NCBI GenBank assembly: GCA_965198065.1
Contig: CBDAON010000004.1
Span: forward strand, 2,592,001 to 2,656,000
DNA from: Longimicrobiales bacterium
GTDB taxonomy: Bacteria; Gemmatimonadota; Gemmatimonadetes; Longimicrobiales; Gaopeijiaceae
Direction of reading: 5' to 3'
DNA: 64,000 nt
The translations under genes and the position numbers were made by a program. The notes beneath the pieces are model-generated. The model was not told the DNA's origin. It searched no databases and saw nothing but the letters and a program-made list of their open reading frames with translations. Below are positions 38,959 to 40,512 of this stretch, in pieces (the stretch's first letter is position 1; the number at the start of each line of letters is the position of its first letter).

Positions 38959-39567
38959 TCAGTAGCGACGGATCACGCCCACCACCACGCCCTGGACGCG
39001 GACGCGGTCGGCCGCGAAGAGCATCGGCTGAAGCCTTTCGTTCGCCGGCTGTAGCCGGACGCGTCCCTCGGGCTCCCGGTAGAACTTCTTCACGGTTGCG
39101 GAGTCGCCGTCCACGAGGGCCACGACCATCTCGCCGTCCTCAGCCGTCGAGCGGCTGTTCACTATGATGTAATCCCCGTCCCGGATCTGCTCGTCGATCA
39201 TCGAGTTCCCCGCGACCCGGAGCACGTAGTTTTCGCCACCCTTCCGGAGCAGGTCGGGGGGGACGAGGATCGATTCGCGGTTCGAGATCGCCTCGATGGG
39301 CTGCCCCGCCGCGACCTCGCCCAGGAGAGCAAGCTCGACCCCTGCGGGGGCCGAACCGGCGTCCACGAGCTCGATCGATCGGCTCTCGTTGTATGCCTTC
39401 CGGATGTAGCCCTTGCGCGCGAGATTACTTACATGTTCGTGGACGGTGGCCAGGGAGCCGTACCCGAACGCCGCCGCGATCTCCTCGAAGCTCGGTGCGT
39501 ACCCGCGATCCTCGATGTATCCACTCAGGTAATCAAGGATCTCCTTCTGTCGTTTGGTCAGAGCCAT
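38959..39567 (-). CDS. lexA: SOS transcriptional repressor LexA
   Basis: LTKRQ.EIL, wHTH (PSFEEIA...SLATVHEH), cleavage site VAAG, catalytic GNSM and TVKK; GGAGG RBS. Confidence 0.97.
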   Translation of the reverse strand: MALTKRQKEILDYLSGYIEDRGYAPSFEEIAAAFGYGSLATVHEHVSNLARKGYIRKAYNESRSIELVDAGSAPAGVELALLGEVAAGQPIEAISNRESILVPPDLLRKGGENYVLRVAGNSMIDEQIRDGDYIIVNSRSTAEDGEMVVALVDGDSATVKKFYREPEGRVRLQPANERLQPMLFAADRVRVQGVVVGVIRRY

Positions 39568-39590
39568 CCGCGCCTCCGGTGAAAGCTGGC

Positions 39591-39633
39591 CCGAATAGGA
39601 ACCGAAATTAGGATAACCCGAAAGTTGCCCGAA
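39591..39633. promoter_or_regulatory. Candidate LexA operators (2x CCGAA-N6-CCGAA) overlapping the divergent lexA/trpC promoters
   Basis: CCGAA at 39591, 39602, 39618 and 39629 (11-bp period within each pair), flanking overlapping TATCCT (minus) and TAGGAT (plus) -10-like hexamers at 39609-39615. Confidence 0.65.
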
Positions 39634-40512
39634 GCACAAGGACCTGGGATCCGGGTCCCGACCCCTGCGCCGCCCGGGGCCGAAGGAAAGCCGGCGGACA
39701 TCCTGGACCGGATCGTCGCCACGAAGCGGCGCGAGATCGAGGAGCTCCTCCCGCGCCTGAGCGAGATCCGATCGCGGGCCGAGCGCGCCGCCCCGGCGAG
39801 GGGTTTCGCTCAGGCGCTCAAGCGGAGCTCCGTCGCCCTGATCGCGGAGGTGAAGCGTCGATCACCGGGCGCCGGAGCGATCCGGCCCGGCCTGGACCCC
39901 GCGGAGCTCGCCCGGGAGTACCAGGCCGCGGGGGCGTCGGCCATCTCTGTCCTGACCGACCGCGAATACTTCCAGGGTTCGCTGGAGGACCTCTCCCGCG
40001 TTCGGGATGCCGTGGAGGTCCCGGTATTGAGGAAGGACTTCGTCTTGAGCGATGCCCAGGTTTGGGAGTCCAGGGGAGCGGGCGCGGATGCCGTCCTCCT
40101 GATCGTTCGGATCCTGGGAGACGACCAGCTCGCCGGGCTTTGCGCTCTGTCCGAGGAACTCGGCATGGCCGCCCTGGTCGAGGTCCACGACGCCTCGGAG
40201 CTTCGCCGCGCGCTGGCCGTGGGCGCGCGGCTTGTCGGGATCAACAACCGTGACCTCGCGACGTTCCGGGCGACCATCGAGACGACGCTCGGCCTCGCTC
40301 ACCAAGTTCCGGACGGGGTGACCCTCGTCTCGGAGAGTGGTATCCGCGACCCGGACGACGTGCGTCGACTGGGCGCCGAGGGCGTCGAGGCCGCTCTCGT
40401 CGGCGAGGCGCTGCTTCGCGCGGGGAGCCCGGCCGACAAGGCGCGTGAGCTTTCCGCGGTCCCGAGGCATGGCGCCGGGAGGCACGGCACCGGAAGGAAG
40501 GGCCTCCGCTGA
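39625..40512 (+). CDS. trpC: Indole-3-glycerol phosphate synthase
   Basis: [40 protein letters not shown]; only upstream start is TTG 39625, which is uncertain. Confidence 0.96.

Follow-up and report, generated by a model that had tools for sequence, protein, structure and literature searches.

The window analysed here, a stretch of 64,000 nucleotides, contains a lexA gene set among tryptophan genes: between 37810 and 41162 the order is trpD, lexA (reversed), trpC and trpF. Within the class Gemmatimonadetes trpC was found beside lexA at 102 of 109 loci; outside the class the count was 0 of 10. Aligned with E. coli LexA, the predicted protein has Ala87-Gly88 at the cleavage site and Ser122 and Lys160 at the catalytic dyad; its recognition helix is SLATVHEHV, in which Glu44 aligns with E. 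coli Glu45. The gene adjoining the repeats described below has the DNA-binding domain, the Ala-Gly site and the Ser/Lys dyad of a canonical LexA. The closest relatives of the protein are titled Gemmatimonadota.

Immediately upstream of lexA are four copies of CCGAA, starting at 39591, 39602, 39618 and 39629, which form two exact TTCGG-N6-TTCGG boxes when read on the minus strand (Table 1). The first-pass annotation of this DNA had described these copies as two pairs with an 11-bp period in an AT-rich patch, and both the coordinates and the composition of the patch (53% A+T, compared with 31% for the window) were verified. Their distances upstream of the lexA start are 24 and 51 bases. They are the only two exact matches to TTCGG-N6-TTCGG in the window; in 100 shuffles of the window the mean was 0.30 exact boxes, and two or more occurred in 3 of the 100.

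The two hexamers that had been proposed as promoter elements around one of the pairs were also found in place, flanking the distal box with a spacer of 18 bp, where most relatives have 17 bp. A consensus promoter scan did not call a lexA promoter, and the promoter is predicted here because the geometry of the hexamers is conserved in relatives. Counting from the -10-like hexamer, transcription of lexA would begin at about 39603. Among metatranscriptome contigs (one run, share 0.05) there was a 205-base piece that spans 39385-39584 and, given that span, is uninformative on the start site. The sole in-frame start codon of trpC falls within the distal box, and trpC could thus be influenced by LexA as well.

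Table 1. Features at the lexA-trpC intergenic region and its flanking genes, with positions in the window
Feature	Position	Strand	Basis or remark
lexA, 202 aa, DNA-binding and S24 domains	38959..39567	-	TIGR00498, 198 bits against a cut-off of 111
GGAGG, ribosome-binding-site-like, before the lexA ATG	39573..39577	-	sequence
Proximal box, TTCGG-TTCCTA-TTCGG	39591..39606	-	23.1 bits with the relatives-built matrix; covers the predicted transcription start
-10-like hexamer, TATCCT	39610..39615	-	TA-nnn-T in 73/78 relatives; putative function
Distal box, TTCGG-GCAACT-TTCGG	39618..39633	-	17.6 bits with the relatives-built matrix; same position in 78/78 two-box relatives
-35-like hexamer, TTGTGC	39634..39639	-	TTGCGT, TTGCGC or TTGCAC there in relatives; putative function
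trpC, divergent from lexA	39625..40512	+	only in-frame start codon is TTG at 39625, overlapping the distal box

Conservation of the boxes at lexA promoters

Related lexA promoters were taken from the best 80 of 488 loci, 79 of which had upstream DNA (one was dropped). An exact box was present at all 79, as had been expected if the motif was conserved upstream of orthologous lexA genes, and 78 of the 79 had two, the second lying 25-32 bp from the first. None of these loci had a box on the opposite strand or in the coding controls. The 79 promoters contained 157 half-site pairs at a distance of 11, consistent with a direct repeat of 11-bp period, and the half-sites were invariant while the spacers between them varied. 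These relatives are kin, and the counts are not independent trials. In the two-box promoters TTG-nnn stood immediately before the distal box in every case (78/78), and TA-nnn-T followed one base past it in 73 of 78. This placement indicates that the distal box occupies the 17-bp spacer of the predicted promoter (18 bp at the present locus). In a second, partly overlapping set of lexA loci that included the host genome (the genome from which the window comes), the box was found in 29 of 30. The sole exception was the lexA promoter of one genome (G020; locus L017, contig G020:C10), whose recA and radical SAM genes do carry the box, unlike its lexA.

A wider survey of 301 genomes from the phylum found the strict tandem pattern in 216 of them (one of these, G188, is unpublished), nearly always as a single occurrence, and the reversed control pattern in none. 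All of the tandem-positive genomes belonged to the class Gemmatimonadetes (216/286, versus 0/15 in other classes). Seventeen genomes of the class that were chosen because they lacked the strict tandem all had at least one exact box at lexA. When the search was started from the motif rather than from the gene, lexA was directly downstream in 55 of 80 metagenome loci (40 further stretches were left out of this count); three more of the loci end within the start of a LexA, and many of the others were simple repeats. The same scan of viral contigs gave lexA downstream in 4 of 71 loci, and the matches were mostly due to chance. In the plasmid collection there was no close LexA, every match having less than 60% identity.

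The bare motif is not enriched in the host genome over other spacer lengths: 14 exact TTCGG-N6-TTCGG matches were counted, compared with 8-31 for the other spacers of 0-15, and about half of the 14 fall within predicted coding sequence. The significance of the boxes thus rests on their position and conservation. These genome-wide counts would be expected if the repeats at lexA were chance matches, or plain promoter sequence, in a GC-rich genome. The probability of that explanation is close to negligible, given invariant half-sites around variable spacers in 79/79 promoters and a tandem pattern found in 216 of 301 genomes where its reversed control was found in none.

Boxes at other genes

Genes beyond lexA were scored for a box in the 300 bp upstream, one mismatch being allowed. 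A box, mostly of the form TTCGC-N6-TTCGG, preceded recA in 26 of 30 relatives; among the control windows 10 of 231 had one. A radical SAM gene of the PA0069 family had a box in 21 of 26 genomes (17 exact; host genome included, four partial loci dropped), versus 5 of 190 controls. For dnaE2 the fraction was 14 of 28 (two dropped), and an exact box was present in 4/4 further re-fetched stretches. All 11 promoters of imuA-like genes, a provisional name given to weak RecA matches that were mostly near dnaE2, carried a box. The replicative dnaE paralogue, used as a control, had one in 1 of 20. The background in the host genome was 90 of 2675 genes as delimited by a rough gene caller, and controls overall were at about 3-4%.

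A matrix built from the relatives only gave six sites above 20 bits in the host genome, where permuted matrices gave 0-3. These six precede an imuB-like gene, recA, dnaE2, the radical SAM gene, a DUF5131 gene and lexA. The two uvrA copies, uvrB and recN of the host genome had no box within 400 bp, the best candidates having 2-3 mismatches. The suggestion that the motif would recur at DNA-repair genes thus holds for recA, dnaE2 and the imuA-like genes and fails for recN and both uvrA copies.

Several of the host genes behind these sites were unusual. The best-scoring box precedes the imuB-like gene, which is split by an IS256 element (L001:2517-4270; G000:C4 ~277900-279650) and is the only IMS-family match in the host genome, and dnaE2 is itself split over reading frames (L002:2546-5499; G000:C4 from 291141). 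The broken imuB and split dnaE2 may reflect a decaying mutagenesis cassette, or they may be assembly errors. The box before the DUF5131 gene is exact; a TcmP-family gene follows in the same locus, which lies beside an integrase-like reading frame (L003:2501-4172; G000:C4:503333) and is possibly a mobile member of the regulon.

The recurrence of the box also bears on whether the repeats serve the divergent trpC and tryptophan genes, or are merely incidental to the start region of trpC. The head-to-head arrangement of trpC and lexA in those 102 of 109 class loci, together with the TTG start of trpC inside the distal box of the host locus, would fit such a role. However, the promoters of recA, imuA-like, dnaE2 and radical SAM genes have the same box, and it is retained at lexA in lineages where trpC is not a neighbour: five of the 17 loci without the strict tandem have no adjacent trpC, and all 17 keep the box. 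Given these boxes at repair genes that are not linked to trpC, control of trpC is very improbable as the reason for the repeats.

Comparison with known LexA boxes and the recognition helix

The alphaproteobacterial LexA box is GTTC-N7-GTTC according to the available text of PMC8565304 and PMC3323433. Like the box described here it is a direct repeat with an 11-bp period and a TTC core, but only 7 of 172 Gemmatimonadetes sites match it exactly. The G that precedes TTC in the alphaproteobacterial box was present in 21 of 172 first half-sites and 74 of 172 second half-sites, and in Gemmatimonadetes, unlike in GTTC, it is the two bases following TTC that are conserved. GTTC-N7-GTTC has reportedly also been found in Acidobacterium capsulatum. 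The LexA of the Balneolaeota recognizes the direct repeat TTACACATATTTTWTACATA, which was defined by comparative genomics and confirmed by EMSA (PMC7739468, in the portion of the article available). That system resembles the Gemmatimonadetes one in having a direct-repeat operator and in its regulon, which comprises lexA, recA, translesion polymerases and a radical SAM gene, whereas its letters are unrelated, and its box is EMSA-confirmed where the Gemmatimonadetes box is predicted.

The identical box was found at the lexA genes of Patescibacteria-type loci. All three distinct loci with upstream DNA (L438, L442 and L446; five more that lacked it were left out) had the arrangement TTG-nnn-TTCGG-N6-TTCGG-n-TATAAT or TATACT, which places the box at the same promoter position. 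The L438 protein is the same as a Ca. Falkowbacteria LexA, and that of L446 shares 78% identity with one from Ca. Magasanikbacteria. As in Gemmatimonadetes, these proteins have Glu at the same helix position, but each locus has one box, where Gemmatimonadetes lexA genes usually have two. In its accessible part, PMC7739468 cites Sanchez-Osuna, Barbe and Erill 2017 (PMID 28618189) among three references for direct-repeat recognition by LexA, and Table S2 of PMC8565304, as far as that source was available, includes two Patescibacteria LexA proteins with sites taken from PMID 28618189. The box is therefore likely to be a LexA motif already defined, reportedly by EMSA, in Patescibacteria, with letters that would be the same. 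A metagenome locus with a Spirochaetota-type LexA (L300:901-1565), which has Asp at position 44, carried the same tandem TTCGG boxes. The literature, as far as it was searched, contained no description of an SOS box in Gemmatimonadota. The first-pass claim of an undescribed SOS box can thus be kept, within that search, for the class Gemmatimonadetes, and it is doubtful for the motif as such, because the identical box sits in three Patescibacteria-type lexA promoters.

The fifth base of the half-site was compared with the residue at LexA position 44, the counterpart of E. coli Glu45, which is a base-contacting residue according to the available text of bioRxiv 10.1101/2020.07.14.201889 and PMC13416735. 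Among 130 rows with Glu or Asp, drawn from overlapping sets, 129 had the TTCGG box and none had TTCGC-N6-TTCGC. Ten Lys proteins from other classes gave the C form in nine cases and the G form in none, and the C-type promoter, which 0 of 42 genomes of the class had, was found in 14 of 19 others. A more distant Lys protein (L706) also had a C box. Two Tyr proteins (L555 and L556, helix SVSTAHYH) had TTCGA-N6-TTCGA, reversed and placed after TATAAT; their relatives mostly have His, Phe or Gln at the Tyr position. The named homologues of this family were mostly from Patescibacteria, and some were fused to a PF01555 methyltransferase domain. When viral contigs were searched from the motif, lexA lay downstream of 0 of 57 C-type and 2 of 47 A-type matches, the two being loci already known. 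Chemically, the pairings would make sense if an acidic side chain faced cytosine and a lysine faced the guanine of the opposite strand.

The number of independent residue-base changes was small: one pair at first and, after three loci were added, three changes on the best tree and one on well-supported branches. A tree on which Lys arose only once could not be rejected (p-AU 0.196), and with 1-3 independent changes significance is out of reach for the covariation. None of the recA promoters of 14 scorable Lys-type genomes had a TTCGN-N6-TTCGN box in 1.5 kb. Five Lys-type genomes had nine C-type matches outside lexA promoters, one of them clearly before a damage gene, dinB. In the Lys-type locus L630 (G052:C27), TTCGC-N6-TTCGC lies between lexA and dinB. 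The recA boxes of Glu-type genomes keep C in the first half-site, which goes against the pairing. One proposal is that the LexA proteins of a broad clade, which takes in Gemmatimonadota, Patescibacteria, some Spirochaetota and other groups, read a TTCG-X direct repeat in which the equivalent of E. coli Glu45 sets X: G where it is Glu or Asp, C where it is Lys and A where it is Tyr. This proposal could equally well prove right or wrong.

The same comparison bears on which protein occupies the box. Binding by canonical LexA is a prediction, and the host genome encodes a second LexA-like protein (G000:C4:698592-699197, minus strand) of about 27% identity with an intact-looking DNA-binding domain; most of 41 genomes had such a second, weaker match. 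This paralogue has no Ala-Gly site, no catalytic serine and no upstream box, and it is possibly a conserved non-cleavable regulator. It is the canonical lexA that the box tracks into distant lineages, and the last box base shifts where the helix of the canonical LexA shifts, all of which leaves it improbable that the paralogue or another damage-responsive factor is the protein that binds the box.

Proposed regulation and its significance

Taken together, the two boxes are very likely LexA operators on the promoter of lexA itself, and in the class Gemmatimonadetes the same box likely marks an SOS regulon of small size. The direct-repeat LexA box of the first-pass annotation is supported by its conservation at lexA, recA, imuA-like, dnaE2 and radical SAM genes, and by a LexA helix and box that vary together in other classes; in the host genome it does not extend to uvrA, uvrB or recN. 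Each box would hold one LexA dimer, which would read two head-to-tail half-sites 11 bp, or one helical turn, apart. The distal dimer would then occlude the spacer between the -35 and -10 elements, and the proximal dimer the start site. Once DNA is damaged, RecA filaments would stimulate self-cleavage of LexA at Ala87-Gly88 through Ser122 and Lys160, and the genes would be released; that RecA-stimulated self-cleavage frees the operators is established for LexA, as stated in the available text of PMC8565304. The conserved one-mismatch recA box, TTCGC-N6-TTCGG, may be a weaker site that permits basal expression.

If the residue at position 44 does set the fifth base, one substitution, E44K, would be enough to turn a repressor that reads TTCGG boxes into one that reads TTCGC, which would amount to a one-residue recognition code for SOS-box evolution. 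The pairing of residue and base also offers an inexpensive way of testing how the LexA motif shifts in the course of SOS evolution. The boxes do not represent a new kind of system; rather, they extend the range of direct-repeat LexA sites past the groups reported previously. These data provide a predicted SOS box for an entire class of soil and water bacteria that has hardly been studied, together with a predicted regulon of lexA, recA, imuA/imuB/dnaE2 and a radical SAM gene, apparently without uvrAB and recN.
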